DNA of 64,000 nucleotides from Bacteroidia bacterium (GTDB lineage Bacteria; Bacteroidota; Bacteroidia; NS11-12g; UBA9320): NCBI GenBank assembly GCA_017640445.1, contig JAEPQQ010000003.1:42543-106542 (forward strand), read 5' to 3'. The notes beneath the pieces were generated by a model. It made no database searches. It was not told the DNA's origin and saw only the letters and a program-made list of their open reading frames with translations. Position numbers and translations under genes: made by a program. Positions 39,181 through 57,050 of this stretch are shown piece by piece (within the stretch, counting starts at the first letter, position 1; each line of letters starts with the position of its first letter).

Positions 39181-42129
39181 ATGAACCGCTTACGTATTAA
39201 CTCATTGACCAAATCAGTACTAGTTTTACTGGTTGTATTTATTCAAAGTGTCTCTTCCGGTCTTGCGCAAGAGATTAAACTCTTAAAAGACATTTGGGAT
39301 GCCGAGGATCCCGGGAGGTCTTCTACACCTCAACATTTCATTGAATACGGCGACCTGCTGTTGTTTGTTGCGCAAGAAGAAAAAACGGGAGTCGAACTAT
39401 GGTCTACCGACGGAACTGAGGCAGGAACCAAGTTAGTTAAGGATATTTACCAGGGCCCCGCCCCCTCACAGGTCTCACAATTAACGTTATACCAAAACGA
39501 AGTATACTTCACAGCGAACGATGGGGTTCATGGACAAGAACTATGGAAAACGGATGGAACCGAGGCAGGCACGCAAATAGTGGTAGACGCAAACCTAGGT
39601 GCATTAGGCTCCTCCCCTCTCTATCTCACAGCACACGATGGATTCCTTTATTTCTCAGCATGGGATGCTGATCGTGGTCGAGAACTTTGGAAAACCGACG
39701 GTACTTCAGCGGGAACCACTTCGTTCGATCTGGTAACCGGTCGTTTTAGCGGTGACCCAATCTCCATGGTTAGTTATAAAGGTTACCTGTATTTTGGTGG
39801 TAATGACGTTAGCAGCCTTCATAGTCATGACCTGTGGAGAACAGATGGAACCCCCGAAGGAACCGAAAAGATTGGAACAGGCAGCGATCGCTCTGACGTT
39901 TCTGTATCTGCCCTGACAATTTCAGGGAATAATTTATTCTTTAATGCCTTTTCCGACGGGTCAATTAACAAACAACTTTGGGTTACCGATGGTTCAAAAA
40001 CGGGCACCCGCCTGGTCAAAAAAATTGATTACCGGTTTGGCGACAGACAGGGACCTCAATCGATGACACCTGTCAATAATGGCATCTACTTCAGTGCAAT
40101 GGATTCGTTACATGGACGAGAACTCTGGTGGAGCGATGGCACTGAACAAGGCACCTATCTAGTTAAAGATCTGGAACCTGGTGTTGGGAGTTCAGTTCCA
40201 AACTCTTTCACCGAATGGAAGGGCAAGGTTATTTTCAACGCTCACACAAGCCTCTTTGGCCAGGAGCCTTGGTCTACCGATGGCACGGAACAAGGAACTC
40301 AACTGATTAAAGACATAGCCCCCGGAACGTTTAGATCGGTCATTGGTAACAACAGCTATGTACCGTTCAATGGAAGGTTATACTTTACCGCGAATGATGT
40401 TGCACATGGCGATGAGCTTTGGCGAACCGACGGTGATTTTAGTAGTACGGAATTAGTAAAAGACCTATCACCGGGTCTCCCTGGATCGTCACCCTTTTTC
40501 CTAACCCCGTTTAAAAACAAACTGATCTTTGCTGCCGGTGATACAGCTGTTGGCAGGGAGTTGTGGATATCCGATGGCACCGAGCATGGCACCAAGGTAC
40601 TTGCGAACATTTATTCGTATCCGGGCAGTTCGCAACCAATCGGAATTACAGTAGTAGGCAACGACTTATATTTCAATGCAAATCATCCGGTTAACGGGTT
40701 CGAGCTTTGGAAATCAGATGGGACAGAAGATGGTACCTTTCTCGTACACGATATTCTTCCCGGAAAAGATGGTTCTTTCCCCCAATTCATGACGGCCGGA
40801 GAGGGCAACGTTTTCTTCATTGCCACCGATGAAGACCATGGAAGAGAACCCTGGTTTAGCGACGGAAATGAGACCCGACTTGTAAAAGACGTCAACCAGG
40901 GAATCGCAAGCTCCTCCCCCTTTAGCCTCACTCGCTTTAAGGACCATATTTATTACGTAACCCGGAATGAGATTTCGGGCTTCATGCTCCGAAGGATGAA
41001 TGTTCACACGGGCAAGTCATCCTTGGTTAAAAGCTTCTTCATCGGGTTTCAGTCTACGTCACCTGGTCAGCTAACCGTATGCCGTGGTCGTTTGTTTTTT
41101 ACCGTTTTCCACGAAGAAACTGGATCTGAACTGTGGTCTACCGATGGAACTGAAGCCGGGACCAAACTGGTTAAAGATATTTGTCCAGGTATCTGTTCAT
41201 CATCCCCTAGAAACCTGTTCAACCACAATGAAATTCTGTACTTTACCGCTCGCGGTGAAACTACCGGAACTGAATTGTGGCGATCAGACGGAACACCCGA
41301 GGGTACCCGACTGGTTAAGGATGTTCGCACGGGGTCGGGACATGCAGAATCACGCCCCATGATTAGCCTGGGAGACCTCCTGTTCTTTTCGGCAATCGAT
41401 CTTAGCGGCAGGTATGGACTATGGAAAACGGATGGCACAACCGCAGGCTCCCGACGAGTTAAAGATGTGAGCCCAGGTTTCTTATCGTCAGGCTTTCTGG
41501 ATGCTGTGGTTATGGACGGCATCGTTTACTTCTCGGCATCGCAATACGGGTCAAACAATTACGAGTTATGGCGCAGTGATGGAACTGAAAAAGGCACGTT
41601 TCTGATTAAAGACATTAATCCAAAACCCTATGGTTCCAACCCTAGCCAGTTTACTAACTTCTATGGCCAACTGTATTTTATTGCAACCGACGAACAGGGC
41701 ACCGAACTATGGACGAGCGATGGTACAGAAGACGGTACGCGTATGGTGCAAGACCTATACCCAGGTCTATGGGCGTCTCACCCTCAGGAATTAACGATTG
41801 TTGGACAACGATTATACTTTGTAGCAACTACTTACGATCACGGACGAGAGATCTACTACATAGAGGACCCCAGCATCGTTTTGCCCGAACCAGACCCAAT
41901 ACCGCACTGGTATTATCCAAATCCTTCTAACGGTTTGTTAACGATTGAACTTCAGGAGTTTGATTATACCGCGCCCGTCGGTTTTGAGATCATTGACGTT
42001 ACTGGGCGCCTTCATATGGTTGGGCAGGTAAAAAACCCAAAACAAGACATCGATGTTTCGCGACTTCTTAATGGTATGTATATCGTGAAATTGTCGAACG
42101 GACTGTCAGGTAAACTGATCCGATTTTAA
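39181..42129 (+). CDS. ELWxxDGT-repeat protein with T9SS type A sorting domain
   Basis: About 16 recognisable (E)LWxxDGT repeats; signal peptide; C-terminal YPNPS...GMYIVK. Confidence 0.9.
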   Translation: MNRLRINSLTKSVLVLLVVFIQSVSSGLAQEIKLLKDIWDAEDPGRSSTPQHFIEYGDLLLFVAQEEKTGVELWSTDGTEAGTKLVKDIYQGPAPSQVSQLTLYQNEVYFTANDGVHGQELWKTDGTEAGTQIVVDANLGALGSSPLYLTAHDGFLYFSAWDADRGRELWKTDGTSAGTTSFDLVTGRFSGDPISMVSYKGYLYFGGNDVSSLHSHDLWRTDGTPEGTEKIGTGSDRSDVSVSALTISGNNLFFNAFSDGSINKQLWVTDGSKTGTRLVKKIDYRFGDRQGPQSMTPVNNGIYFSAMDSLHGRELWWSDGTEQGTYLVKDLEPGVGSSVPNSFTEWKGKVIFNAHTSLFGQEPWSTDGTEQGTQLIKDIAPGTFRSVIGNNSYVPFNGRLYFTANDVAHGDELWRTDGDFSSTELVKDLSPGLPGSSPFFLTPFKNKLIFAAGDTAVGRELWISDGTEHGTKVLANIYSYPGSSQPIGITVVGNDLYFNANHPVNGFELWKSDGTEDGTFLVHDILPGKDGSFPQFMTAGEGNVFFIATDEDHGREPWFSDGNETRLVKDVNQGIASSSPFSLTRFKDHIYYVTRNEISGFMLRRMNVHTGKSSLVKSFFIGFQSTSPGQLTVCRGRLFFTVFHEETGSELWSTDGTEAGTKLVKDICPGICSSSPRNLFNHNEILYFTARGETTGTELWRSDGTPEGTRLVKDVRTGSGHAESRPMISLGDLLFFSAIDLSGRYGLWKTDGTTAGSRRVKDVSPGFLSSGFLDAVVMDGIVYFSASQYGSNNYELWRSDGTEKGTFLIKDINPKPYGSNPSQFTNFYGQLYFIATDEQGTELWTSDGTEDGTRMVQDLYPGLWASHPQELTIVGQRLYFVATTYDHGREIYYIEDPSIVLPEPDPIPHWYYPNPSNGLLTIELQEFDYTAPVGFEIIDVTGRLHMVGQVKNPKQDIDVSRLLNGMYIVKLSNGLSGKLIRF

Positions 42130-42695
42130 GATAACATCTTACCCACCTGTTGCTCTACGGCCTCAAACAAGTGCTCAGGCTTTTTGGTTTTCCAGTTCCA
42201 GGTAGCCTCGTCATCCTCCTCCAGGCGAACGTAGGAATCAATACCCGCAGCCTCCATCTCATCCATAACGTGGTCCCGAAAATGTAAGAAAGCCACCCAA
42301 CCACCCGGGGTATCTTCCCACCACTCCTGGTAATACGAATCATCGCTGGCATGAAAGTTCAACACGTTTTCACCTAGAAGTATGAACTTCTCAATTCCAC
42401 ATTCCAACATTTCATCAATGATTTCTCGCTTTAATGTTGCGATGTCGTTGTTAATACAATCGTTCCACTCTCCTATCATCTCAAGAATGGCATACCCCTT
42501 CTCATAATCAACAAACAATACTTTTAGGAGCAACGTATCACTTCCAAAGTAGTCCCACTGCGGATGAATAGCATAGTTGTATATTTTGTTCGTAAACTCG
42601 AACTGGCTATGTTCCGTGTTATAAAAGGGACTGTCGGCATCGTCGCTGGCCCGATACAAGTGTCTCCAAAGAAAATGTGGTTCAATCTGATGCAT
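42126..42695 (-). CDS. Hypothetical protein, possibly STAS-like
   Basis: Overlaps the GT2 stop; IGEWND motif; C-terminal half resembles the STAS pattern. Confidence 0.6.
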   Translation of the reverse strand: MHQIEPHFLWRHLYRASDDADSPFYNTEHSQFEFTNKIYNYAIHPQWDYFGSDTLLLKVLFVDYEKGYAILEMIGEWNDCINNDIATLKREIIDEMLECGIEKFILLGENVLNFHASDDSYYQEWWEDTPGGWVAFLHFRDHVMDEMEAAGIDSYVRLEEDDEATWNWKTKKPEHLFEAVEQQVGKMLS

Positions 42696-43614
42696 GTTCG
42701 ATATTGGAATCCTGTATTACATACAACGGACGCTCCTTAATGTTTTCATTAATTCGACTGATGTATTCGCCAATGATTCCAATTCCGATGAGTTGAATGC
42801 CTCCGATAAATACCATTGTCACCATTTGCGACGCCCAACCCGGCTGATAATCTTTGATTACATAGCGCGAATACAATGTATAGAGTATGAGCAAAAAACC
42901 TATAAACGAGAAAACAAATCCCGATATCGTTGCAATTTTCAGCGGCCAGTTACTAAACGATGTAATACCATCCAATGCAAACCGTATCATTTTAGCATAA
43001 CTGTAACCCGTTTCCCCACTCATTCGCTCCTCGCGTTCGTAGGTCACATCAGTTTGGTTAAAACCGATCCATGATATCTGCCCCCTCAGAAACTTCTGAC
43101 GTTCAGGCATCTTACGAAGCTGTTGTACCACTTTTCGATCGATGATCCGGAAATCACCTGTATCTAATGGAATGTCAATTTGTGTAATACGGTTTAACAC
43201 CCGATAAAACCACTTAGCAGTGGCTCGTTTCATTATGGACTCACCTTTACGTTGTGCACGTTTGGCATACACAACCTCGTATCCTTCCAGGCTTTTTAGA
43301 TACAGTTGTTCAATCACCTCCGGCGGATCCTGGCCATCAGCATCAATGATCACCACCTTATCTCCGGTAACATGATCGAGGCCCGCACTAACTGCAATTT
43401 GATGACCAAAATTGCGACTGAAGTGAATGTACTTCACCTCCTGGTGTTCCTTAGCCAATTGGTTCAACACCTGTTTGCTACTGTCTGAGCTTCCATCATT
43501 CACATAAACAAACTCCCCTTCCACATTCAGCTTTTCCAACACGGCAGTAATACGCTCGTACATGGGCACGATGTTGTCTTCTTCATTGTAAATGGGAATG
43601 ATTACAGAAATCAT
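42682..43614 (-). CDS. GT2 glycosyltransferase (GtrB/YkoT-like, polyprenyl-phosphate)
   Basis: VIIPIYNEE, VNDGSSD, SRNFGHQ, DADGQDPP, TGDFR, two C-terminal TM helices, RPLY. Confidence 0.92.
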   Translation of the reverse strand: MISVIIPIYNEEDNIVPMYERITAVLEKLNVEGEFVYVNDGSSDSSKQVLNQLAKEHQEVKYIHFSRNFGHQIAVSAGLDHVTGDKVVIIDADGQDPPEVIEQLYLKSLEGYEVVYAKRAQRKGESIMKRATAKWFYRVLNRITQIDIPLDTGDFRIIDRKVVQQLRKMPERQKFLRGQISWIGFNQTDVTYEREERMSGETGYSYAKMIRFALDGITSFSNWPLKIATISGFVFSFIGFLLILYTLYSRYVIKDYQPGWASQMVTMVFIGGIQLIGIGIIGEYISRINENIKERPLYVIQDSNIEHASD

Positions 43615-43819
43615 GGTTCAAAGAAAGTACTTTTAGTTATAATTCTCTGTAACTAAAATCAAGGTGGTGCGTAATACCTATAACTGCACAAACCTTTATT
43701 GTCACTCATGTAGACCCTATATTTCCCTTATCTTAAAAAAGATAGTCCGTTTCCAACTAACTAGCTAATTTGAGCCCTTTATCATAAATTTGGGCAACTT
43801 AAAAATTAATTCAAAATCT

Positions 43820-45193
43820 ATGTCTGATTCTTTTGATTTACTTGACCAATTAGGTGACCAGAAAAAAGTAGAAAACCTTAAAGCAAAACTTGAAAAAAAG
43901 TCCAACGAAAACATTGCAACCAAACTGGACAAAATAGAAGCCGAAATCGAGAAAGCAGTTGGCGAAAACCGCTCTTCTGAAGAAATCGTTAGCAATATTA
44001 TTAACTCCAACTTCGATACGTTAAACGGCGATGTGGAGGCCACTGAACAAGACCTTCAGGAACTCATGCTTCACCTCCGGTCCATGCTGGACAGTTGTGG
44101 TGGGGAGTTTTCTAAACTTCAGGAGTTAAACACGTCGGAACAGAAGTTGATCGACAACGCAACAAAAGCCCGGGAAGAGGCTGAACAAGAAGCCAAAGAT
44201 GCTGAGTCTATGTCGAATGCCTGGAACATTTTGTTTGGGTATAAAAACAGCAAGGTAAAACGTACAAAAGCCGAACTCGAGCAGAAAGTAGAAGCGCTGA
44301 AAGCAGCCGAGGCAGAAGCGCAGAAACGTTATCGCGACCGACTTAAAAATGCCGACATCGGTGAAAGTCTGAACCGTATCATTAGCCAGGTTCAAGGAAT
44401 GGTTGGTATCGTAGAGGAAATGATTCTGGAAGTTGACAACCAGATTGTTGCCCTGAAAAACCGTAAAGAGCTTGCTTTCGAAACCAAGGAAAAAGCAGCT
44501 CAGGTTATGGAAGATCGGAAAACCGACCTCGAAGAGGTTGAGAACCAACTGAAACAAGCGGAGACCGAACTAACTGAACTTCCGAACAACAGCCCTGAAT
44601 ATACGGAACAACAGAAAAAAGTTGCTGACTTGAAAGAACGTCGTGCCGACTTAAAAGGAAAATTCAACATTGCGCTTGGTATTTTCCAGTCGAAGGAACG
44701 TTTTGTTGATCAGATTGTAGTTCACCTGGAAGCACAAACCACTACCAAAAACAACTTAAAACAGTTGATTGGTCAGTTGAAGAGTGACACGGAAGAGCGT
44801 GTAACCACGTATGAATCAGGATTACAGCTTATTCAGTCTGCAACGGCTCAGGAAGCTGCCTCTATGTATGAGGAAGCAGGTGTAAAGACCGATCAGAAAA
44901 TTACTGAGATCGCTGCCAAGGTATTGGTGGGTTCCGAAAAAGATCGTATCGAGCGTGTGAAGAAACATCCTCAGCGTATGACGGAACTTCACAAGGTGCT
45001 TGTTGCCATGGCTGAAGCTACCGCCAAATACAAAGCAGAAGATGCTAAGATAATGGAAGAGCACAGCAAAAAGTTTGGCATCGACGTTAGCCAAACATTC
45101 TCCCATAAATACGAGAAAAACAGCGAACCGTCGAACAACGATGGTGGTTCTTCTGAGCCAACAAATGATTCTGTAAACGAATTGATGGACTAA
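43820..45193 (+). CDS. Long coiled-coil protein of unknown function (first gene of the AAA operon)
   Basis: Heptad-rich, E/K/Q/A-rich, almost all helical. TAAATTTG -7 box at 43785 supports ATG 43820. Confidence 0.75.
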   Translation: MSDSFDLLDQLGDQKKVENLKAKLEKKSNENIATKLDKIEAEIEKAVGENRSSEEIVSNIINSNFDTLNGDVEATEQDLQELMLHLRSMLDSCGGEFSKLQELNTSEQKLIDNATKAREEAEQEAKDAESMSNAWNILFGYKNSKVKRTKAELEQKVEALKAAEAEAQKRYRDRLKNADIGESLNRIISQVQGMVGIVEEMILEVDNQIVALKNRKELAFETKEKAAQVMEDRKTDLEEVENQLKQAETELTELPNNSPEYTEQQKKVADLKERRADLKGKFNIALGIFQSKERFVDQIVVHLEAQTTTKNNLKQLIGQLKSDTEERVTTYESGLQLIQSATAQEAASMYEEAGVKTDQKITEIAAKVLVGSEKDRIERVKKHPQRMTELHKVLVAMAEATAKYKAEDAKIMEEHSKKFGIDVSQTFSHKYEKNSEPSNNDGGSSEPTNDSVNELMD

Positions 45194-45212
45194 GGCCCGC
45201 GAAAACTGAAAT

Positions 45213-46310
45213 TTGAAGACAATTGACATAAACAATCACTTTACAGAGCTCGACCGAAGCATTCTGGAAGGTGAAACTGCATACTCTGATTACTTCAACT
45301 ACGTTCGGGATTGTTTGAACATCTTATTAAGCTCGTTCGACAACATCACCACGCAAAGCTCGCTTGAAATCAAAGTGCTTAAGAGTTTCTCTCAGAAGTT
45401 CTTAAATACGATTGAAGCATTTCGACTCAAGTATGCCTTTGAGGATGAAAGCCCCATGCGTATTGACTTGACAGAAAGTGGCTTCCCGAACTTTATGGAG
45501 TTTAAGAAGTTAAACGACGACATTGATCGAAAGGAGACTGCTTTGGAGAAACTACCTAGTCAGGACTCACTCAAACAAAGTATTCTGGACCACCTGATTC
45601 GAAAAAAAGAGGACCCAAGGCACCTACTTAAGCAACTGAGCCGATCGAGCTATTACATACGTTTGAAATGGAGCAACCTGTTTACAGAATTCACTCCAGG
45701 AACACTGGAACTTCTGAATGAACATACCGATAAAGCTCGTACCCGAACGTATTTCTACTCCTGGGCGTCTTACGACAGTGTAACAAACAAGCCTTTCATT
45801 TACACCATGGTCTTCGACAACAAGGCCATCTCGAAAGAAGGCGTCACCGACGTAGACAAAGACCCCGGTTTTGTTGAAACAATTAAACGTGTAACGCACA
45901 ATACTTCTCCATTGAAGGTAATTGCTTCCGACATCGACAATGCCTACGAAAGTGTTATGCCCAAGGTAATCAAACGTATTGAAATTGGTCCAATCTTCGG
46001 GAAGTATGCACAGGACAAACATCCGCATACACTGCTTATAAAAAAGCAATTTTCGGACGACGATTTCATCTTTACATACAACACAGAAATCGTCTTTTCA
46101 ACAGGTGAAAAACGAACCAAGTCCTTCCTGTCTAAAGGGGAGCTCCGGCAGGTGTTCTATGTCGACGAGTCGAACAAGGAGTGTATGGAAAAAATGGTCT
46201 CCGACTATCATACATACCTGATCACTTCTCACAAGGTACTGCAATACCTTAACGACAATGAACCCGACATGTTAAAGGATCTTTCGGCACCTGTTTACAC
46301 CTACAACTGA
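45213..46310 (+). CDS. Hypothetical cytoplasmic protein (AAA operon)
   Basis: 365-aa ORF in a tight operon; ESGFP and WASYDS motifs; no recognisable catalytic signature. Confidence 0.7.
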   Translation: MKTIDINNHFTELDRSILEGETAYSDYFNYVRDCLNILLSSFDNITTQSSLEIKVLKSFSQKFLNTIEAFRLKYAFEDESPMRIDLTESGFPNFMEFKKLNDDIDRKETALEKLPSQDSLKQSILDHLIRKKEDPRHLLKQLSRSSYYIRLKWSNLFTEFTPGTLELLNEHTDKARTRTYFYSWASYDSVTNKPFIYTMVFDNKAISKEGVTDVDKDPGFVETIKRVTHNTSPLKVIASDIDNAYESVMPKVIKRIEIGPIFGKYAQDKHPHTLLIKKQFSDDDFIFTYNTEIVFSTGEKRTKSFLSKGELRQVFYVDESNKECMEKMVSDYHTYLITSHKVLQYLNDNEPDMLKDLSAPVYTYN

Positions 46311-46311
46311 T

Positions 46312-48270
46312 ATGGAAAAACAAGAATCATCATTATTAAAAATTAAGGAGGATGACCTCCTTGTCTATAAAGACGACATAACGGCGTACCTGAAACAAGT
46401 AAGCTGGCTGCCCGATGGGAAGTCTTCTACAACCATTGATCTGAACTTCTTAACCAACGTTAGTAAGGCTCTTGATCTGAACCAGGAAGACACAGTTTCC
46501 ATTTTAAAGGAAGCCGTTCGAATCAGCAACGACCGAGTTATTCTATCGAATGCAAGCAATCATGTGCTTAACGCTGTTCGGAAAGGTTATACCATTGGTA
46601 AATATCTGGCCAACCTTTATTCGGAAGCGAGTGGGCTTGAACTGCTTCAGCAAAAGAATCAAAACGGTAGTCTTCACCAGTCGGAGCTACCCGAGTTTCA
46701 CGATAAAAGTCAAACTCAGAGTGCTGTTTTATTGTTCGGTTCAGCGTCTTACATCAAGTTTGCGTTGCAGGATTATTTGGCGGACCAGGTTTCAAGCATT
46801 CAGATCGACTTTGGCGGAATACCTCAGCTTAGTCTTACACGCCCGTCAAAGGCCATACAATGTAGCCTTTATTATTTCGGCGCCTATTTGGAGCGATCGG
46901 GTGTGGTTACATCCGACCTGCACCTTGTCAAACTGACCTTACTGTACTTTGAACGGGTTATTGAAGAGGTGCTTCTTCGAAAGAACGCCTTGAAATATTT
47001 GGAAGCCTTTAACCAGAACCATTACAAACTGGAAAACTCTGAGTTTATGGTTCAGGGGCTTGAAGCTCCCTCTTCCATTTCAGTTAAGGGCATGCAATTC
47101 AACCCTACCCGAATGGAGGACATTGTTGCCAATAAACAGGCTAAGCACTTATTTAAGCGATATGCTGAACGACTGCTTTGTTATGATTTTGACGCACGAA
47201 AAAACCCCATCAACGAACTTGGTGGCTTGCCGTCTATAACCATGGCTGATGGGAAGCCCGGTACAGGTAAGAGTATGCTCATTGCCGCAACTGCTACCTT
47301 GCTCCAGGAACGTTGTGATCAATTGGGTCACAACTTCTTGTTCTGGCCACTTCCAGAGACCATTGTTTCGACCTTTCAAGGAGGAACCGCCGAGCGGGCA
47401 ATGGAGTGGTTCAAACCCATGCAGGACCCTAACAAAATTGTATTTGCACCAATAGACGATGCAGAAAACAACCTGGAAGAGCGAACTCGTCAGGGAGTAT
47501 CTGCCGGTGTTCGAGAGTTTATCGGGGTATTCCTCCGAAATACTGAAGGTGCATACGCCATCAATCACGGAAACCGGTTAATGAGTCTGTTTACCAATAT
47601 TCCCGACCAAATTGACAAGGCCGTTTTGTCACGGATTCAAATGCGCATCTCGATGGAGGGAGCCACCTCCAAATATGACTTTATCGATCAGGATTACCTA
47701 TGGTGGAAAAAGTACAACGAACTGGATTCCAAATTCGTAGACAATAAAAAACCAAAGGCTTATGAATACATGGAAGCCCAAAAGGCCGCTACCTCGATCA
47801 ACGAACTTGTAGCAACCCAATATCGCTTTGGCAACACCGACGTGGAAGAAATGTTCCATGCCGTACAAAAAGAAATGGATGTTCAAAGCCATGAATTCTT
47901 TGGCGTATTCTACAATCGGATTTTGGAAAAGTATCCGTTCTTTTCATCGCGCGACCTTCGTAACATTCAGAAGGCGGTAGATGCGCGATTAATAGACTTT
48001 GACCTGCCATCGGTGTGGTGGGACAACCCGGATGACTTCTTTAACCAGGCGTATGACAAAAAGCTCGACATCCTTAAAGACCTGATGAAGCAAAACATGA
48101 AGGGAGTTTCGTTTGGCGATGTGCGACTTTATGAGGCCTTGAACTACATAGAGAACTCCATTCGTATCAACGAAACGGGAGTAAACAGAGAAATTAAAGC
48201 CCGCGCAAAACAACTGTATATACAGCAGCAGGCAAACGAAGAATTAAGGAAGGGAAACATCCATGATTAA
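46312..48270 (+). CDS. Classic-clade AAA+ ATPase with long N-terminal domain
   Basis: Walker A GKPGTGKS (47251-47274), pore loop VSTFQG, Walker B-like APIDDAE, SRH TNIPDQIDKAVLSR, lid FSSRDLRNI. Confidence 0.88.
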   Translation: MEKQESSLLKIKEDDLLVYKDDITAYLKQVSWLPDGKSSTTIDLNFLTNVSKALDLNQEDTVSILKEAVRISNDRVILSNASNHVLNAVRKGYTIGKYLANLYSEASGLELLQQKNQNGSLHQSELPEFHDKSQTQSAVLLFGSASYIKFALQDYLADQVSSIQIDFGGIPQLSLTRPSKAIQCSLYYFGAYLERSGVVTSDLHLVKLTLLYFERVIEEVLLRKNALKYLEAFNQNHYKLENSEFMVQGLEAPSSISVKGMQFNPTRMEDIVANKQAKHLFKRYAERLLCYDFDARKNPINELGGLPSITMADGKPGTGKSMLIAATATLLQERCDQLGHNFLFWPLPETIVSTFQGGTAERAMEWFKPMQDPNKIVFAPIDDAENNLEERTRQGVSAGVREFIGVFLRNTEGAYAINHGNRLMSLFTNIPDQIDKAVLSRIQMRISMEGATSKYDFIDQDYLWWKKYNELDSKFVDNKKPKAYEYMEAQKAATSINELVATQYRFGNTDVEEMFHAVQKEMDVQSHEFFGVFYNRILEKYPFFSSRDLRNIQKAVDARLIDFDLPSVWWDNPDDFFNQAYDKKLDILKDLMKQNMKGVSFGDVRLYEALNYIENSIRINETGVNREIKARAKQLYIQQQANEELRKGNIHD

Positions 48271-49534
48271 ACTGATCCAAAACGGTTTATTTGGTCATTC
48301 ACTGGTACAAGTGAGTACCGAGTCGATGATTAAACGATACAACGACTGTTTGAAGGATATTGGCCTTGCCCCAACGAGGTTGACGTCGTTTCACATCGAC
48401 GGCTGGGGTTGGAGTCCGGAGATTGCTGAGGAACAGGGTGACCGGTTTTATCTGTCTCACGGTTTGGCGAATCCATATGGGATTATAGTAAGTCCCAAAC
48501 AAGCTAATAGCTCCATCTATTTACCTTATCATAGTTTCGACAGGGCAATTCACAAGACCATATTTGAGCAGTACGCTGATCAAATCAAAGACATTACATC
48601 GCGATCGGGCCTATGGTTTGAACTTGACCAGGAAATATCGGCTTACCGATCACCGCAGGACCTACTGATGGTTGATTATGTGAAATTGAACTTCTTTTCA
48701 GTAGATCGCATTATGACCGCCGCTCAGGATCAACGGGCACTGATTCGGGAGTTCTACGACAAACCTCATGCCTGGTCGAACGACGAACTTCGACAACGCA
48801 TCATCGATAGCAGTGAGCGTCATGGAGACCTGAGGTACTCAAAATTTGAGATACCCGCTCATCCTTTCAACGAAATCGAGAACTTCTTCACGGTTGCTTT
48901 TAACGGTGTATACGTGTTTAAAAAACTTCCAAACGGCAAACCTCTTCTGGTACACCAGTCGGGCGATTCCAGCGTATCGGGAGAAACGAAACACGGGCAC
49001 GTAGAATACAACGTCAACGATCCTGAACTCATCAGCTATCTGTACAATGCGGGTATGATCTCGAACAACATCAAACTGTTTGAAGAGCACCCTGTGCTGT
49101 TGGAACTTATGCAAGAGCATCTTTTGTTAGAAGCCGCGTCCAAGTTAGAAGAACCAGTGGACTTCTCAACCATCAACGCTACGCAAAAGAAAGGTGTAGT
49201 GAATCGGCTGATGAAGCAAAACCTTCTTGGAGATGCCTACTTTGAGTTCGAACGGCTCATTATGGATGTTCGCGATGGTTCCGTTGGCGCGTCTTACTCT
49301 ATACCCGATGTTTTACGCCCGTTTTTGCTGAACCCTGAAGCCAAGCTTTCGTCTCAGGAAAAACTGGTGTTGTGGCAGTTGTTATGCACCTACAACCCGG
49401 CCAACCCGGTGTTCACCTATTTGTTTGACAAATCAAGTTTTTACTCTCAGTATAAAACCTGGGATGAAAAACTGCAGCTTTGGATTATCCAAAAAATACT
49501 CGCTCATAAAGAAATTTTTAACGCCTTGATTTAG
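48263..49534 (+). CDS. DUF6638-like protein
   Basis: N-terminus LI..GL...RYN..L...T.LT.FHID..G.SPEI..E.GD..YL matches my recollection of DUF6638, a family I recall beside AAA ATPases. Overlaps the ATPase stop. Confidence 0.6.
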   Translation: MIKLIQNGLFGHSLVQVSTESMIKRYNDCLKDIGLAPTRLTSFHIDGWGWSPEIAEEQGDRFYLSHGLANPYGIIVSPKQANSSIYLPYHSFDRAIHKTIFEQYADQIKDITSRSGLWFELDQEISAYRSPQDLLMVDYVKLNFFSVDRIMTAAQDQRALIREFYDKPHAWSNDELRQRIIDSSERHGDLRYSKFEIPAHPFNEIENFFTVAFNGVYVFKKLPNGKPLLVHQSGDSSVSGETKHGHVEYNVNDPELISYLYNAGMISNNIKLFEEHPVLLELMQEHLLLEAASKLEEPVDFSTINATQKKGVVNRLMKQNLLGDAYFEFERLIMDVRDGSVGASYSIPDVLRPFLLNPEAKLSSQEKLVLWQLLCTYNPANPVFTYLFDKSSFYSQYKTWDEKLQLWIIQKILAHKEIFNALI

Positions 49535-49541
49535 CGCTTCT

Positions 49542-50057
49542 ATGGATACTTTTTTATCACTACTTGTCGGTTTCGTTATTGGGATTCTGTTCTTTGCCTG
49601 GGACAACAAAAAAGGATATGTGTGGTACAAACGTTGGTACGACCTAAGCCATAAAACACCCCTGGATTCGGACAATGTTTACAGTTTTATAAACAACCAG
49701 CCGTTTTCAAAGAGGCTGGTTCCTGCAATCATCTTAACCGTTCTTTTCGCCTGGGGCTCGTGGTTATTAGGTGACCTAAACCTCATTATTACGCTGGTTA
49801 CCGGTATGCTTTCACTGGTTGGTGTGATAGCCGGTTTCTACGTTGGCCCGATGGTTATGAACAAATTACCTAAAGGTTTAAAAGAGGCAAATAAAACCCT
49901 TAAGAAGATTGACGAATTAGAGAAAGACCTTCTCGACGACCAAAAAGAACCGAAACCGCAACAACCCCAGGCTCCTGAACAAAGCTCAAGCGACAAAACC
50001 GACGACAAAAAAGATACCGATTGGAGAAAAGGTGTTCAGGATTTTCTTGATAAATAA
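49542..50057 (+). CDS. Small membrane protein (about 3 TM) with charged C-terminal tail
   Basis: Three hydrophobic segments; acidic/polar tail ending in amphipathic DWRKGVQDFLDK. Confidence 0.7.
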   Translation: MDTFLSLLVGFVIGILFFAWDNKKGYVWYKRWYDLSHKTPLDSDNVYSFINNQPFSKRLVPAIILTVLFAWGSWLLGDLNLIITLVTGMLSLVGVIAGFYVGPMVMNKLPKGLKEANKTLKKIDELEKDLLDDQKEPKPQQPQAPEQSSSDKTDDKKDTDWRKGVQDFLDK

Positions 50058-50068
50058 CAAAACCACAC

Positions 50069-51658
50069 ATGGAAGAAACCACCGAACAACAAAACAACAG
50101 ACTCTATTGGATTGTCGTAAATCTACGAACCAGAATTTCGACAGCCTTAAAGAAATTCATTAAGAAACGTCCCATCCTTTCCGGGATTGTGATGTTGGTA
50201 ATTGCCTACTTCATCTTTACCGGACGCAGTGGAATTCAACCCGCGTTTCTGTTAATTCGGAAGTTCTTCTTATTGGCGTTGCTGTCGTTGGTGATTTTGT
50301 GGTGGTATTTTAAGGGGTGGAAAACACGTACCAACAGGGGCAACATAATCGGAACGATCTTCCTGCTTGGTTTTGCTGCGTTTAGCTATTTCATTGGACC
50401 AGGTCTGTTTCGATACCTGAGCCTTTATACGCACTACACCAAGCTCGAAAAGGTGGCTTTGACCGAACTGCCCCCTACTGGATTTGAACGGATTCAACCC
50501 ATCAATTCAGTTAGTACCTTAATTAATCAGGAAGCACTGCGGGAAACCGAAGATGCAACACCTCCACGGTTCATGAGAGGTAAAGACGGTAGATATTATT
50601 ACAGTTGTGCTGTTGGACCAGCGAAAGAATATAAGATTCAACAGGTGAGCAAGAATATGTACAAGGTCATTTTTGTACCATCCGACCTACCGGCTCCTGT
50701 GTTCTCTGGCAAATACCGTTCGGATGTAAGTTTTGACATTGGTGAACTTCTCTTGTTCAGTAAAAAGACAACAAGTGCCGTTATCAAAAGATTTACACCG
50801 TTGCAATTCCTAAACTACGAGCCAGCCGAACCGCTTTTTCTTCAAAACGACGAAGGTAAATGGGTTCAGGTGGTCCCTCTCATCAAATGGAGAGGCTTTC
50901 TGTTTCCAAGACCCGTCTTTGGTGGGGTGATGGTTATTGAGGATAAGTCAACCTCGAAAGGCTATTTCTCAAGGGTATTTTTTGGCAAGGGAACGTTCAT
51001 CCCAAAAGCTGAAATTTCCAAGCACCCTTATCTGGTTGGGCAAAACCTCATTCCAAAACAAGTTGCACGGTTTGTTGCCGAAAGCTTTCGCTTTGCCAAT
51101 GGCTTCTTTGCCCCAATGCCTTACTACCATGAGGGTGACATACGTATTCCACACCTGCCAAACGACGTAAACCCACAACCGTTTGTTACCTACTTCAATG
51201 TTCCGGGCGCTCCTAAACTGTACAACTTCTTTGGGCTCGAACCGTATCAGGAAACCAAGAAAGGGCTTAGCCTTAGTCTTCTCATTCCAGGTGACGACGA
51301 TGAACGGGTGTTCTACATGGATCATCGCCAATCGGAAAACACCTATATCGGAAGCAGTGCCATCTCTGCAAAAATTATTGAAAGCAAAAAGAACTACGAC
51401 TGGAGCAAGAACTACCCGGCTGAAAGTCGTCCGTTTGTTCGAAAAGTTGATGGAAAGTCAAGGTTTATGTGGTTAAGCACCATTGTAACAAAGGCTGGCG
51501 ATCAGGGAGAGTACATCGGTGGTAGTATACCGGAACTTACTCTAACGGATGCCACCCATGGGAAAGTGGTCTGGATCAATTCCGACTCCCTCATCAACAA
51601 CGATAGTTGGATCCATCTGGCTGAAGAGGAATTGCAGGAATATTGGCGAAAAGAATGA
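50069..51658 (+). CDS. Membrane protein (3 N-terminal TM) with large extracytoplasmic domain, unknown function
   Basis: Three hydrophobic helices, then about 400 aa of soluble Pro/Phe-rich sequence; 11 bp after the previous gene. Confidence 0.72.
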   Translation: MEETTEQQNNRLYWIVVNLRTRISTALKKFIKKRPILSGIVMLVIAYFIFTGRSGIQPAFLLIRKFFLLALLSLVILWWYFKGWKTRTNRGNIIGTIFLLGFAAFSYFIGPGLFRYLSLYTHYTKLEKVALTELPPTGFERIQPINSVSTLINQEALRETEDATPPRFMRGKDGRYYYSCAVGPAKEYKIQQVSKNMYKVIFVPSDLPAPVFSGKYRSDVSFDIGELLLFSKKTTSAVIKRFTPLQFLNYEPAEPLFLQNDEGKWVQVVPLIKWRGFLFPRPVFGGVMVIEDKSTSKGYFSRVFFGKGTFIPKAEISKHPYLVGQNLIPKQVARFVAESFRFANGFFAPMPYYHEGDIRIPHLPNDVNPQPFVTYFNVPGAPKLYNFFGLEPYQETKKGLSLSLLIPGDDDERVFYMDHRQSENTYIGSSAISAKIIESKKNYDWSKNYPAESRPFVRKVDGKSRFMWLSTIVTKAGDQGEYIGGSIPELTLTDATHGKVVWINSDSLINNDSWIHLAEEELQEYWRKE

Positions 51659-52869
51659 TTGGCCTAAGACTTGCATTAACGACTTGCCTGATGCTGACGG
51701 CTTGTTTTTCCTTTTGCCAAAAAGTCAAACGAGTTAAGCAGAAAATGGAAAACAAAACCATCAAGCACATTTATGTGAGGCAAGATGGTTTGGAACATTT
51801 GGAAACGGGCGAGTTCTACCTGATTCAAAAGAAAGACACCTTGTCGAAAGGCAGGTCTTTTGCAAATGGCCTGATTCACACCTATGCTGGTGACACCACC
51901 TGGGTCACGCATAAGGACCGACCAGAGTACAAAGGCATGATGATCAACGGTAAAAAAGAAGGTCAATGGGTATTTGTGCATCGCCTGGGATACACAGGAC
52001 ACCTCCTCTACAAGAACGACAAACAAGTTGGTGATGTCTCATCCTTTTTTCCCAATGGCAAACCCTTTGTTCATTACCATCTCGACGACTCTTCAAAACA
52101 AGACGGACGTTTCGTTTTAATGAACGCCCAAAACGACACTGCTGCTGTCATACATTTTAAGGCCGACAAGCCACATGGCACCATGTGGACCAAATACTCC
52201 TCAGGGAACTACTTCTGCAAGGCCATATACCGGAATGGTAAGCTCTGGACCTACGATGAATTCGACTCAGAGGGTAAACTCAATCCCGAATCATCTGTAA
52301 AAGACGGTAATGGTACAGTGCTAATTAAGAGTGCCACGGAGTCCAAAACAGAACCGATCATGGAAGTACGTTTTGAAAACGGTTACCTGCACGGCCCGTC
52401 CACCAATTTTCAGGTAACCAATGGAGAGAATATGGAGTTTTACAAAAAAGGCGTTCTTGTTGAAAGCATGTACGAAAAATCAAGTGATTCCTCCACTAAC
52501 TGGTCGTCATGGTTTGCCTACATGATGTTCAAAGACAAGAGTGGTCGTTATCTGGGCTATGGACGAGCCAAATTTGGTGATACTGAATTGGAATTGGCGC
52601 TGGATCGATACGTTGATGATAACATACGCGTTCCTGACATTGCTTACGAAATGGCAAAATCGGGTCAGGTTATTGTGGAGTTTACGGTTGAACAAGATGG
52701 TAGGGTAAGCAATTTGACAATTGGATCAGACGTAAAATTAGGTTATGGGGTGGAACAGGCGTGTTTGAACGTTATTGAACAAACCAGTGGCTCGTGGCGC
52801 CCATTCACCCGGTTTGGTTTACCGCAACGAATTAGGTTTACCAAGCCAATCGGGTTTAACTTTTTCTAG
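51655..52869 (+). CDS. MORN-like repeat protein with TonB C-terminal domain
   Basis: Signal peptide; G.W..Y..NG-type repeats; C-terminal GQVIVEFTVEQDGRV...W.P....G...R.RFT.PI.F; ATGA overlap with the preceding gene. Confidence 0.75.
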   Translation: MIGLRLALTTCLMLTACFSFCQKVKRVKQKMENKTIKHIYVRQDGLEHLETGEFYLIQKKDTLSKGRSFANGLIHTYAGDTTWVTHKDRPEYKGMMINGKKEGQWVFVHRLGYTGHLLYKNDKQVGDVSSFFPNGKPFVHYHLDDSSKQDGRFVLMNAQNDTAAVIHFKADKPHGTMWTKYSSGNYFCKAIYRNGKLWTYDEFDSEGKLNPESSVKDGNGTVLIKSATESKTEPIMEVRFENGYLHGPSTNFQVTNGENMEFYKKGVLVESMYEKSSDSSTNWSSWFAYMMFKDKSGRYLGYGRAKFGDTELELALDRYVDDNIRVPDIAYEMAKSGQVIVEFTVEQDGRVSNLTIGSDVKLGYGVEQACLNVIEQTSGSWRPFTRFGLPQRIRFTKPIGFNFF

Positions 52870-54488
52870 AACACCTCAACCTTGGCATACCCCACCATAC
52901 CATTTTCAATAATGCGGATAAAGTAATGGCCCGGTTGGTTTAGCTCTACACCTACCCTGGCATTAGACGAAGTCAAGAATTTAACAATAGAGCCGTAGCT
53001 ATTAAATACTTCAATAACACGTTCTTCTCTCGACTCAAATTCCAATGTACAATGCCCGGAAGTTGGGTTGGGATACACTTTATGTAATCTGGGCGACACC
53101 AAATCGTTATTTCCAACAATCACATAAGTGCCACAAAAACGGTTGCTATCCAGATCCACCTCTAGTTTCCCATTCGGTGCCAGTGCCTCAAAGCACAAAT
53201 CCAGAATCGGGCCACGTTTAATACCCATAAAACGCGTTTTTGATTCAAATGTAGCTTCATCACCTGGTGCCAGGTTAAGGGAATCGAGCACCTCATAATA
53301 GATCGCATTTTGACACCAGGCAAGATGCCCTAGGTTGCAGAAGATAGCCACTGAGTGCAGTGTATCCAGGCCGACATTTTTGATTGCAAACTCTCCCTCT
53401 GCTGTAAAACTACCTACTTGGAATTCGTCAGTGGCAATGCGCCTCAATTGAGCTTGTTTTAGTTGTACATTGGGCGATGGTCTTTCGATGGGTCTTGTAC
53501 GCCAGGGTTGAGCGAACGCCATCATCTGGCCAGAGTACGAATTCCCGGTAAAAATGAACTCCGATTGGGTTCGATGAACATCGGTCACGTTACCTCCTGG
53601 ATTCTGATACATAATAGTGTTCCAGGATGAGTTGGTTTGTTCATGGAGCACGACCTGGTTCGTATCGGCTTCTATAATAAATACGGTGGCATCAATCAGT
53701 TTGATTTTTTTAAACTCTTTGGATGCCTGAAGCAAAGTATCCCTAACGATTAGTCCGGTATCCATTCGAAGAATTGACTTATCTGTTTGAAGTAACACAT
53801 TATCTCCTTGTAACACGGCACCCTGTATTCCGCCTATGTAGGAACTGGAATCAAGTAACACACCAGAAGTATCTGCCTTATAAACGCGCTCTTCGGTTGA
53901 CAACAAAAGCGTTGAACGATCAACAAAGACCATGGCCACCAGTGGTGACCCCATATTGAGCCACCTGGCTGATCCGATCTCGCGTGCAGCTGTATCAAAC
54001 GTAAACAAAGCATTATCAACGCCAATTGCGCCCAATCCATCCCCGTTAAAATCAACCAAAATGGGTTACTCCCAGGGAGGTTTAAGGTACAAGGGTTCTG
54101 TGGTTTCCAGCGTATAGAGCTGCTTCCCATTTGGGCTATATGCGGCAAAGACCACTCGTTCATCCATAACCACATCCCCACTATTGTATTCAACCCCTAC
54201 GGTATGAATAATCGAAGGAGTAGTAAAAATGGTTCGAAAGAACGCATTTGACGTATCCCTGGATGTTAAATGCCACTTTTCCACACCGTTTTGAAGAGTC
54301 ACAATACCTTGATAAAAACAAGACGGAACGGACAGTTTACCTCCAACAATCAATAGAGAATCGTTAAACACAGCTGAACCCAATAGAGTGGATTTGGTAT
54401 GCGAAGTTTCTGTATCAACCCACGACCAGGACTGGCACAACGCAAGGTTGGCATACAAAACGAACAAAAAACTAAGGAAGTGTTTCAT
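52866..54488 (-). pseudogene. T9SS type A-sorted protein interrupted by an in-frame TAA
   Basis: ORF 54488-54066 (signal peptide) and ORF 54059-52866 (C-terminal VYPNP...GHYFI) are in the same frame: ...PPWE-TAA-P-I-L-V-D-F... Confidence 0.7.
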
Positions 54489-54565
54489 GGTATCAAAAGT
54501 GTACGAAAGCTTCTCCGAAGATACGGCTTCCGAATATCACAGGCCGTCAGTTGGTTGTCATATAC

Positions 54566-54593
54566 AAAAAAGGCCCGACAATGTCGAGCCTTT
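54566..54593 (-). terminator. Rho-independent terminator at the island boundary
   Basis: Minus strand AAAGGCTCGACA-T-TGTCGGGCC followed by a T run. Confidence 0.7.
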
Positions 54594-54767
54594 CTGTGGT
54601 GTGGGGCGTACCACAACCATTTTATTTTATTTGACTACATTGTACTATTAAAGCCTAAAAATACAAATAATCTTCATATTAACAACACAATACAATCACA
54701 TCACATACATGTTGTTCGTCCCCAATATTGTCCCCCATTTGGATATATCATATATTTGCGGGGACAA

Positions 54768-56081
54768 ATGAACGTAATTAACATCCCAAATCCTACCATA
54801 AGTTTTCACCCTAAAAATCTCAAGGCCAAATCAAACACTGTACTTTACGCCAGGGTTTATTGGAAAGGGCAAGATTTTAAAGTTTATACCAACTCAAAAG
54901 TAGACCCCATCAAATGGAAGGAACATAAACGAAAATCCAAAAAGTCCGACTTTGATAGTCTTTTTGGAAAAACTTCCATCTATGGTGATCTAAACACAAT
55001 AAGAAATCAAATCATTAATGCATTCGAATTATATAAAGCTCAAGTGATTAATACGGGCAACGAATTTGTATTCAACGAATTCAAATCTTTATGCAGGGAC
55101 AATCTTACTAAAGACAAAAATGTTCAGCGCGGAGATTACCGAACTGACCTAATTGCTTTTGCTAAACACTATTACGCAGAACTTAACGGCCATAGGGCAA
55201 AAGGAACGCTAAAAACGTATAATACATTAATCACTCAGCTAGAAGCATTCAAAGAGACTAGTAACAAACTGTCTTTCGACCTGAAGGACATTGACCTTAA
55301 GTTCTATCATGAATTTGTTTCTTTCTTGTACTCTATCCCTACTCCTACCAAAACTCCAGTCAAAGCAAACACAGTAGGTAAGAAAGTCGCAATTCTTAAG
55401 GCATTTTTAAGGGAGTCGCATGACCGTGGCTATCACAACAACACTGCATACCTCAAAAGCAGTTTCAAAACACCAAGAGAAGAGGTGGATTCTGTTGTAC
55501 TATCTCCAGAACAGGTTCAAACAATTTCCAATTTGGACTTGAAAGAACACCCTGGTCTTTCTGCGGTTCGAGACATCTTTATTTTCAACGTAAAATGTGG
55601 CCTTAGGTATAGCGACCTACAAACCATAACACGTGACATTATGATTGTTGACAGTAACGACAATAGGCAGCTAAGAATCAAATCACAGAAAACTGGTAAG
55701 GACATCCTCCTTCCGTTGATTCCTGAAGCCCATGAAATTTGGGCACGATATGACTACAAATTCCCACATATATGGCCTCAGAAGTTTAATAAAAAGATCA
55801 AGACAATAGCAAAGTTGGCTGAGCTTCAAGATAATTTTTCAGTAGAACGGACTAGTGCCAAAAATGTAAAAACCAGAGAGACACGTCCTTTCTGTGACTG
55901 GATATGCACGCATACAATGAGAAGGACCTGGGCTACTACAGAGTATCGCAGTGGAATCCCTTTATACATAATATCTCGACTTTTGGGGCATAGCTCCGAA
56001 AAGGTCACTAGAAGATACTTAAAGATTGACCTTGACCAAGTAGCATCAGATTATTTCAGTTATAAGAAAAAAAATGACTGA
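54768..56081 (+). CDS. Tyrosine recombinase/integrase (arm-binding + SAM-like + catalytic domains)
   Basis: GLRYSD (R), SQKT (K), HTMRR (HxxR), LGHS, RYL (Y). Start at ATG 54768 after TATATTTG; the ORF-track extension to 54399 is judged spurious. Confidence 0.93.
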   Translation: MNVINIPNPTISFHPKNLKAKSNTVLYARVYWKGQDFKVYTNSKVDPIKWKEHKRKSKKSDFDSLFGKTSIYGDLNTIRNQIINAFELYKAQVINTGNEFVFNEFKSLCRDNLTKDKNVQRGDYRTDLIAFAKHYYAELNGHRAKGTLKTYNTLITQLEAFKETSNKLSFDLKDIDLKFYHEFVSFLYSIPTPTKTPVKANTVGKKVAILKAFLRESHDRGYHNNTAYLKSSFKTPREEVDSVVLSPEQVQTISNLDLKEHPGLSAVRDIFIFNVKCGLRYSDLQTITRDIMIVDSNDNRQLRIKSQKTGKDILLPLIPEAHEIWARYDYKFPHIWPQKFNKKIKTIAKLAELQDNFSVERTSAKNVKTRETRPFCDWICTHTMRRTWATTEYRSGIPLYIISRLLGHSSEKVTRRYLKIDLDQVASDYFSYKKKND

Positions 56082-57018
56082 GTATCAAATAAAATATGAC
56101 CCTTACCGTTTTAATTCGTTTAAAGAAGGTGAGTCAGAACTAATAACAAGTTATGGATCTTTTCCTAGACAGAGCGCTTTAGAAATGTTTCTCGCAATGG
56201 TCTTTGTATCATTCAATCCAGATGCGTCATATAGTATTATCTCCCCTTTAAAACGCAGCATCACAAATCTTCATGACGGCTACACATTTCATCCACCTAC
56301 AGTTTTGAGCAATAATGAATTAAAACCCACCCAAATTGAAATTGACATAGTGAACTCGTCCAGATTTGAAGAAATGATCGATCAAATATTCTACAAAACT
56401 GACTCAAGGCTCAACCTCTTTTGTTCAAAATATGGTCCTAACCATCCTGGGCAGTTAAGTTCTGTATTGTCCCAACTGGAAAATCTACTTTGTAGTGATA
56501 TCTATCCTCCCGAACAAAGTAATCTCCCCAAAATTGATGTTAAGTTATTTGACACTAAACGACTCATTGGAATCATGAGTGATAGGCAAGCTGAATTAAG
56601 AGGGGGATTGCACAAACAAAGAAAATATTATTGCCACTCATTTGTCAAAACTGAGGCCATAGAAATTTTTGAATTCAACAAATATGAAACTTTTATTAGG
56701 TTCGAATCTTTACACCTCAATGGCAGGTTTATCAACCTTCAGACCAAGAAATGGTTAAAAGGTGATACTGAATTTATATGTCTTTGTCTAGCTGTTGTTC
56801 AAAAGAATTACATTTTCAAACCAATACTCAATAAAGGAATCAGAAATAACAACAGGCTGCACAATGTAATTGCATATTATGAAAAAAGGTATAATTACAA
56901 ATTAGGGCCAAACTTAAGAAAGCCCTCTCAGTATGAAAAGCGATTTGGCAAATATGCTCCGCAGAGTAAAAAAGCTGAGTTTCGTGAGCCGTACTCCTAT
57001 CTCGTGAGTTACGTTTAA
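56074..57018 (+). CDS. Hypothetical protein translationally coupled to the integrase
   Basis: 314-aa ORF overlapping the integrase stop; no recognisable motif. Confidence 0.6.
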   Translation: MTEYQIKYDPYRFNSFKEGESELITSYGSFPRQSALEMFLAMVFVSFNPDASYSIISPLKRSITNLHDGYTFHPPTVLSNNELKPTQIEIDIVNSSRFEEMIDQIFYKTDSRLNLFCSKYGPNHPGQLSSVLSQLENLLCSDIYPPEQSNLPKIDVKLFDTKRLIGIMSDRQAELRGGLHKQRKYYCHSFVKTEAIEIFEFNKYETFIRFESLHLNGRFINLQTKKWLKGDTEFICLCLAVVQKNYIFKPILNKGIRNNNRLHNVIAYYEKRYNYKLGPNLRKPSQYEKRFGKYAPQSKKAEFREPYSYLVSYV

Positions 57019-57050
57019 GTTACATTTGATCTACATCTAGGTTACATATT
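57007..57050. repeat. Four tandem 11-bp repeats (core GTTAC) upstream of the excisionase-like gene
   Basis: AGTTACGTTTA AGTTACATTTG ATCTACATCTA GGTTACATATT; a fifth copy GGTTACGTTTT at 57094. Confidence 0.75.

Follow-up and report, generated by a model that had tools for sequence, protein, structure and literature searches.

A conserved six-gene module encoding a helical rod protein, an AAA ATPase and predicted membrane partners, with a four-gene core in rhizobia, Vibrio and a viral record

Introduction

What might a cell do with a long, all-helical protein, an AAA ATPase and two predicted membrane proteins that are encoded side by side? This question is raised by a locus of the Bacteroidia bacterium GCA_017640445.1 (contig JAEPQQ010000003.1), within a stretch of 64,000 nucleotides (nt) that was analysed as a whole and is herein termed the window, in which seven open reading frames (ORFs), g1 to g7, occupy positions 43820–52869 of the + strand. 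An earlier note on this DNA, made from the sequence alone, had taken these ORFs as one operon, had likened its products to ESCRT-III/Vps4 or PspA/TelA-type membrane systems, and had offered an anti-phage role as the alternative. From the analysis presented here, the six genes g1–g6 make up a conserved but uncharacterised module, of which g1–g4 are the core, and no component of it is a member of a studied system.

Organisation and conservation of the module

The seven same-strand ORFs have exactly the lengths and spacings previously described, with intergenic gaps of 19, 1, −8, 7, 11 and −4 bp. Three Pfam families are found above cut-off, namely AAA in g3 (E 1e-8), DUF6638 in g4 (E 1.5e-30) and TonB_C in g7 (E 1.4e-6), and no family exceeds the cut-off in Pfam or NCBIfam for g1, g2, g5 or g6, for which PHROGs matches are weak. 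Hydropathy analysis yields three segments each for g5 and g6, as expected of the two three-transmembrane (3-TM) proteins claimed in the earlier note, one N-terminal segment for g7 and none for g1–g4; membrane anchoring of the gene set is supported as a prediction. The operon genes are single-copy, with a GC content of 0.42–0.45 set against 0.44 for the genome, and no paralogy was detected among the six (hhalign at most 3.6 %).

Conservation was assessed across 124 loci gathered around relatives of the ATPase, comprising 40 from genomes, 80 from metagenomes (kept of at least 381 confirmed), three from a plasmid collection (of 10 records) and one from a viral record. Amongst the 66 with at least 4 kb of upstream and at least 6 kb of downstream sequence, 55 hold all of g1–g6 in order. 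Of the exceptions, L004 and L010 miss only the length thresholds, with tblastn recovering all six genes from both, and L020 is without g5 and g6 nearby, g6 lying on another contig. A further four (L046, L047, L048 and L056) represent a four-gene subtype, with g1–g4 in order in 4/4 fetched loci, and a metagenomic locus (L129, 6508–12139) has g1, the ATPase, g5 and g6 only. The co-conservation across phyla that gene-neighbourhood analysis had been proposed to check is therefore borne out, the core being present in rhizobia and Vibrio as well.

In a quick tree of 28 ATPase sequences, the two subtypes are separated with full SH-aLRT (Shimodaira–Hasegawa-like approximate likelihood ratio test) support. 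The six-gene subtype comprises two Bacteroidota clades, three Patescibacteria genomes and metagenome contigs, and the nearest relatives of the ATPase under study (80–84 %) are uncultured Bacteroidota metagenome-assembled genomes (MAGs), mostly labelled Bacteroidia. The four-gene subtype, which has a short g1 of 360 amino acids (aa), is found in Sinorhizobium, Shinella, a 0.9-Mb Vibrio plasmid and the viral record; in three of its four loci (L046, L048 and L056) a DUF2333 gene adjoins the core in place of g5/g6. In the Vibrio locus (L047:6473–12021, plasmid CP099927.1), g1–g4 lie directly upstream of mfd; the Vibrio carrier plasmids measure 0.88–0.94 Mb, and their clusters span several Vibrio species. 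The rhizobial records are probably chromosomes filed as plasmids, given their size of 3.7–4.6 Mb and their neighbouring genes for thymidine kinase and formate–tetrahydrofolate ligase, and the module genes are kept at 90 % identity or more across many Sinorhizobium/Ensifer species.

With regard to distribution, the module is present in 7/10 genomes of the genus, 16/65 of the family and 0/55 of the next family. In the phylum of one further locus (L037), 0/400 other genomes, which are incomplete MAGs, carry it, and no match was found amongst 50,697 GenBank phages. Flanking genes recur within clades, with no regulator gene recurring beside the module amongst them.

The conserved unit ends with g6. 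The following ORF, g7 (51655–52869, +), is translationally coupled and specifies a 404-aa TonB_C protein that the earlier note had counted as part of the unit, but relatives of it occur in 0/40 loci by tblastn and 0/124 by phmmer, and TonB_C paralogues are present elsewhere in the genome; it is a local passenger. The description of its product as a MORN/TonB-C protein holds for TonB_C, but not for MORN_2, which matches at E 0.039 in Pfam, under the cut-off.

The AAA ATPase

The third gene, g3 (46312–48270, +), encodes a 652-aa single-ring AAA ATPase, and its motifs were compared in 103 full-length sequences, these being that of the window and those of 102 loci (L046–L048 excluded). Walker A, an aromatic pore loop (F/Y355, within S-x-F/Y-Q-G), the sensor 1 residue N429, R441 and R445 are invariant in 103/103. 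The Walker B motif reads hhhhDD, with D382–D383 in all 103 and the catalytic Glu thereby replaced by Asp, and position 440 is never Arg (Ser in 102/103), leaving a single Arg finger. Equally invariant is R547 within F-S-S-R, which by its position would be sensor 2, the structure alignment of the second region of homology (SRH) not reaching that residue. Three ATPases from the plasmid collection carry the same motifs.

The nearest solved relatives by sequence are VAT, Cdc48, Afg2, Vps4, proteasome Rpt and Pch2 (E 1e-11 to 1e-6). The SRH aligns gap-free to that of Msp1/ATAD1, with spastin also matched, although these alignments are weak (E 0.2–2). The Walker B motif of the classic remodeller clade of AAA proteins (NSF/p97/Vps4) is DE. 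Classic remodellers carry two adjacent arginines and no sensor-2 Arg, whilst in TRIP13 a single finger is combined with a sensor-2 Arg, according to the text available of PMC4439613. The designation of g3 as a classic-clade AAA enzyme is thus only partly upheld: it shares the AAA core (Walker A, aromatic pore loop 1, sensor 1 and SRH) and its nearest relatives include members of that clade, but it departs from it in the DD Walker B, the single Arg finger and the sensor-2-like Arg. Judged by these motifs and by the N-domain described below, the ATPase constitutes an AAA subfamily of its own, and is likely a threading motor, possibly a slow one.

N-terminal to this core is a domain modelled over 258 aa as five long helices with short strands (predicted local distance difference test score, pLDDT, 87.8; predicted template modelling score, pTM, 0.87). 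It has no clear solved match, the best Foldseek hit being at E 0.29 and the best VIA hit at Z 5.7 with a root-mean-square deviation (rmsd) of 5.8 over 138 residues, and neither the 50 best VIA matches nor the Foldseek matches listed for it include an MIT domain, so that a remote likeness to MIT is possible. Hydropathy gives no TM anchor for the ATPase. A complex prediction of g1 with the N-domain returned a median of 0.30, against a mark of 0.32, and counts neither for nor against a contact.

The rod protein

The first gene, g1 (43820–45193, +), encodes a 457-aa rod with two hairpins, a conserved aromatic/basic tip (residues 133–142), a YGID motif (419–422) and a variable acidic tail. Its AlphaFold2 model (pLDDT 70, pTM 0.59, residues 344–390 being unreliable) is all-helical, as had been claimed, and displays a hairpin at residues 105–176 followed by a very long hairpin at 180–349. 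The tip region is modelled with a pLDDT of 84–96, and amongst 110 members of the family W135 is kept in 75, F/W136 in 59 and R/K142 in 98; YGID closes the helical part of the protein, G420 being present in 96 of the same 110. Membrane wedges typically expose an aromatic/basic tip of this kind, and that of g1 is predicted to grip the lipid bilayer. In the short subtype the first hairpin is reduced to an I/F-rich basic segment, and YGID is absent. Relatives of g1 form 217 clusters at 50 % identity (E ≤ 0.001), some of which are perhaps generic coiled coils, and amongst close relatives (L001–L015) it is the slowest-changing gene, at 75–86 % identity.

Structure searches with g1 return only generic hairpins (SMC, HlyD/EmrA adaptors and YscO-like proteins), which match as well as PspA does. 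At noise level, the hairpin also matches those of translocators and pore toxins (IpaB, Z 12.9, rmsd 14.5; AhlB, Z 9.8). The relation to PspA or TelA that had been suggested for the coiled coil does not survive profile comparison: hhalign gives 0.4–6.6 % for PspA, where reversed-versus-reversed decoys give 3.3–8.3 %, and 0.1–0.8 % for 12 diverse TelA proteins, a homology suggested by eye, where reversed decoys reach 2.6 %. The PspA set consisted of 19 PspA-locus ORFs, one of them probably a wrong ORF, and the PspA and TelA tests include no remote positive control, so that a very distant kinship is possible. A search of BFVD ranks a phage TelA 34th (E 0.065, rmsd 35). PspA_IM30 and Snf7 are not amongst the best 25 of 104 Pfam families matched by the 110 g1 members, the remaining families matching one member each, and no Snf7 alignment was made; nor was a PspA or TelA match found in the host genome, which is 98 % complete. 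An F-BAR identity for g1 was likewise rejected, the Foldseek matches lying at E ≥ 0.01 with an rmsd above 25.

Partner proteins

Two soluble proteins complete the four-gene core. The 365-aa product of g2 (45213–46310, +), which begins with TTG, is a candidate adaptor of no known family, and the 423-aa product of g4 (48263–49534, +) is a DUF6638 protein and candidate adaptor or regulator; the earlier note had listed them as an unknown and a DUF6638-like protein. Conserved motifs in g2 are SGFP, W..YD...P and ID..PK.LKRI.LGP, and the gene is present in 4/4 fetched four-gene loci. Many invariant polar residues are found in g2 and g4 alike, and their profiles gave no PDB sequence match and matched no enzyme family. 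At L129 both are missing, and this joint absence, in one locus, hints that they act as a pair. The S. meliloti forms of g1 and g2, of 362 and 382 aa respectively, share one 90 % identity cluster (L046:6594–8892), which may reflect a fused or read-through sequence; a weak search amongst 7999 candidates found no longer, fused forms of g2. As a separate observation, a Nudix hydrolase gene lies between those for the ATPase and DUF6638 in L018 (10234–10818) and in 16 other loci, a feature of many Flavobacteriaceae loci that the other clades are without, and in L204 (G107, 10641–11279) the same place is taken by a 212-aa ORF of no Pfam family.

Of the predicted membrane proteins, g5 (49542–50057, +) is a 171-aa, 3-TM protein with a basic loop and a low-complexity tail that ends in a short helix-like motif, and g6 (50069–51658, +) is a 529-aa, 3-TM protein with a C-terminal domain of ~400 aa. 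Positive-inside charge counts place the g5 loop and tail inside, and predict that the large g6 domain lies outside the inner membrane. A suspected likeness of g6 to membrane proteins of the UPF0182 type has no backing from Pfam amongst the best 25 of 33 families. In the ESM Atlas, g2 and g6 match only hypothetical-protein clusters (best 0.88 and 0.92, respectively).

Relation to known systems

The pairing of a helical-hairpin protein with a single-ring AAA ATPase bearing an aromatic pore loop recalls ESCRT-III/Vps4 (archaeal CdvB/CdvC and eukaryotic Snf7/Vps4). Vps4 is one of the solved sequence relatives of g3 (E about 1e-7), and the SRH spacing of g3 is like that of Msp1/spastin. Nevertheless, a Vps4-type ATPase is not supported: Vps4/CdvC is defined by an N-terminal MIT and a C-terminal oligomerisation domain, in the available text of 10.1101/2020.09.24.301986, whilst g3 has neither Pfam MIT nor Vps4_C (E ≤ 0.1) and instead carries a different N-domain of ~250 aa and a different motif set, with Walker B DD, one Arg finger and a sensor-2-like Arg. 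The rod also differs from ESCRT-III proteins in its length of 360–460 aa, about twice that of PspA, and in the mid-chain position of its putative lipid-binding tip; with respect to the H0–H5 fold with its hairpin core, the g1 model gives generic hairpin matches, Vipp1 aligning at Z 10.3 (rmsd 13.1, 190 aligned) and, like PspA, scoring no higher than unrelated hairpins, so that a shared fold is possible. In addition, the module includes two further soluble proteins and two membrane proteins, none of which belongs to a known family.

PspA/Vipp1 (IM30) resembles g1 in its long antiparallel hairpin (4whe, Z 11.4, rmsd 2.2 over 120 residues, within the noise band), and the module in its 3-TM partners and operon layout, but g1 is without an amphipathic, H0-type N-terminal start and its profile match is not above decoys. 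TelA/KlaB (PF05816) is similarly all-helical at ~360 aa and has, by eye, a hydrophobic/basic segment early in the chain, yet g1 has no Pfam match, scores no better than decoys by profile, and no Ter or XpaC gene is amongst the recurring flanks. For the ATPase, Pch2/TRIP13 shares the single Arg finger and sensor-2-like Arg (PMC4439613, in the text available), and Pch2 gives the longest matching stretch (E about 2e-6); unlike it, g3 has a helical N-domain that appears not to be NSF/p97-like and Asp for the catalytic Glu, and no gene of the module has a HORMA match in Pfam. Similarity to Msp1/ATAD1 is confined to the gap-free SRH alignment (weak and short, E 0.2), g3 having no TM anchor.

As to published work, the claim that no functional description of this module is known stands, in that no characterised family was matched and none was found in the literature, DUF2333 and SMc02730-35 included, subscription papers being mostly outside coverage; with most subscription papers outside coverage, no description of DUF6638 was found either. 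We take SMc02733 to be a tag in the S. meliloti operon. The name appears without function in a ChvI binding screen, in the available text of PMC3687685. A survey of phage shock protein systems lists AAA-linked PspA/Snf7 operons, none of this layout in its available text, although its supplements (Text S2.2 and Table S3) may bear on novelty (10.1101/2020.09.24.301986), and according to the accessible portion of PMC7619361, a recent review, bacteria and bacterial PspA systems appear to lack a Vps4-like ATPase that regulates ESCRT-III polymers.

Proposed function and alternatives

We tentatively propose that g1–g6 form a machine that acts at the inner membrane and uses ATP to remodel or repair membranes, and put the chances of this at a little short of even. 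In such a machine g1 would hold the bilayer through the aromatic/basic tip of its hairpin and oligomerise, g3 would thread and recycle membrane-bound g1, and g2 and the DUF6638 protein (g4) would serve as a soluble adaptor or regulator pair. Anchoring the machine and sensing conditions on the periplasmic side would fall to g5/g6, or to DUF2333 in the rhizobial/phage subtype. Membrane binding, polymer formation and disassembly, threading by a hexamer, the contacts between components and the triggering stress are all steps that we infer. Points in favour of this reading are that the best solved relatives of g3 are protein remodellers, that a membrane partner adjoins the core in both subtypes, and that the host genome has no PspA or TelA match. 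If a remodelling machine is indeed what the module encodes, it could, on a nearly balanced judgement, be regarded as an analogue of ESCRT-III/Vps4 by convergence and not as a family member. A bolder version, which we consider rather doubtful, would see in it an independently evolved ESCRT-III/Vps4 counterpart, with a membrane-inserting, polymerising rod recycled by a dedicated AAA enzyme with a new N-domain, swappable periplasmic sensors, and capture by jumbo phage and megaplasmids to manage host membranes.

Several points weigh against a remodelling machine. Polymerisation and lipid binding by g1 are what we infer, and the rod is no closer to PspA or TelA than are reversed decoys; furthermore, the replacement of the catalytic Walker B Glu by Asp in 103/103 sequences means that the motor may be slow. 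The loci come mostly from two Bacteroidota clades and hence are not independent counts. In L114 and L116, g1 and g2 are not within 8 kb of the ATPase at the locus, in L136 the ATPase stands alone at the locus, and no membrane partner is annotated within the operon of the Vibrio locus L047. Finally, the module is found in 3/300 Bacteroidota genomes, a patchiness from which it follows that this is no general stress system.

An unlikely though serious alternative is that the module extracts or assembles membrane proteins, in which case an Msp1/ATAD1-like or assembly-chaperone ATPase would pull on a client in the membrane, perhaps g5/g6 or DUF2333, whilst g1 would serve as a stalk or scaffold that does not polymerise and g2/g4 would be the adaptors. 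The weak SRH alignment to Msp1/ATAD1, the match of g1 to stalk-like hairpins as well as to PspA, and the exchange of membrane partners between subtypes whilst g1–g4 stay are all compatible with this, but the ATPase has no TM anchor, the conserved tip of g1 fits direct lipid contact, and g1 is the slowest-changing gene amongst close relatives. The small chance that we give to a nucleotide-gated switch or signalling scaffold, the least probable of the readings considered, comes from the invariant DD Walker B, from the combination, known from TRIP13/ClpX, of one Arg finger with a sensor-2-like Arg (PMC4439613, in the text available), and from the richness of g2 and g4 in invariant polar residues and their joint loss in L129; a slow ATPase would then relay a signal that g6/DUF2333 picks up in the periplasm, by way of g1, to g2 and g4, of which one is perhaps an enzyme. 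The invariant aromatic pore loop is instead what a threading motor would have, the recurring neighbours include no regulator gene, and no enzyme family matched g2 or g4.

Bacterial relatives of Pch2/TRIP13 are reported to regulate phage immunity. The motifs of g3 resemble those of Pch2/TRIP13, and a biological-conflict system (anti-phage, superinfection exclusion or anti-plasmid), in which g1 would be a membrane-damaging or membrane-sealing effector restrained by the ATPase, also draws on the patchy distribution, on carriage by the Vibrio plasmids and a phage-like record, and on the noise-level matches of g1 to IpaB and AhlB. We regard it as quite improbable. PADLOC 2.0 gives two partial matches to the module at chance level (E 0.003–0.004), and of the 140 ORFs that flank the module in 21 of the 40 genome loci, 11 match PADLOC at E ≤ 1e-15, but only one does so over its full length (the defence candidate PDC-S13, at L012); the other ten are partial matches that we take for common folds, labelled by us as helicase, deaminase, sigma factor, ABC ATPase, exonuclease and kinase. 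Moreover, flanks recur within clades, module GC is close to that of the genome, and the genes are kept across many Sinorhizobium/Ensifer species. Phage defence in particular, the alternative offered by the earlier note, is weakened and less likely because the flanks are mostly housekeeping and a phage itself carries the module. The viral record concerned (L056, from IMG/VR) is 359 kb long, 94 % by CheckV and classed as a provirus, and has virion structural genes, topoisomerase II, a clamp loader, PhoH and an Rz-like spanin around the module. It also gives a short match to Gp23, but no terminase or sheath family was found in it. Carriage by phage fits a membrane function useful to cell and phage, inter-phage conflict also being possible. 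In the immediate neighbourhood (G305:C1, 127606–145369), DUF2333 and the four-gene core lie beside FliG-middle, FliM-like, SmpB, DnaJ, peptide deformylase and the Rz-like spanin; flagellar-switch homologues (FliG-middle and FliM-like) are unusual in a phage.

Were the remodelling proposal true, ATP-driven membrane remodelling would have been reached a second time, by convergence, through a dedicated rod-plus-AAA module unrelated to PspA. Five of the six module proteins belong to no characterised family, and the N-domain of the ATPase adds a fold without a clear solved match. That the module occurs in the reduced genomes of Patescibacteria, on megaplasmids and in a genome resembling that of a jumbo phage suggests that its function is worth both retaining and transferring, and the presence of its four-gene form in Sinorhizobium meliloti, a tractable and non-pathogenic model, makes the question testable.

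Promoter elements and neighbouring genes

The TAnnTTTG box claimed in the earlier note is present as TAAATTTG at 43785–43792 (+), 35 nt before the first ATG, that of g1, and its position is kept at 32–35 nt before g1 in 11 close relatives. We take it to be a Bacteroidota −7-type promoter box. The + strand of the whole window contains 23 copies of the pattern; within 150 nt upstream it is found in 21/69 related loci versus 22/432 coding control windows. A different motif, CGA[AC][AC]TT, lies no more than 100 nt (mostly 38–56 nt) before the g1 start in 53/54 Flavobacteriaceae-type loci versus 11/374 controls (for example, L191:1500–1512), and is probably a promoter variant; it shows no genome-wide enrichment, and no regulon was therefore derived from it.

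To the right of the operon, a tyrosine integrase (Pfam Phage_integrase) followed by unknown ORFs, with GC falling to 0.34–0.40, marks a probable integrated element at 54399–58898. On the left, a 982-aa repeat protein with a Por/type IX secretion system (T9SS) C-terminal sorting domain is encoded at 39181–42129, and between it and the operon (42126–43614, −) are a divergently oriented gene for a family 2 glycosyltransferase and an unknown ORF of 189 aa, both of which flank the operon in five close relatives too.

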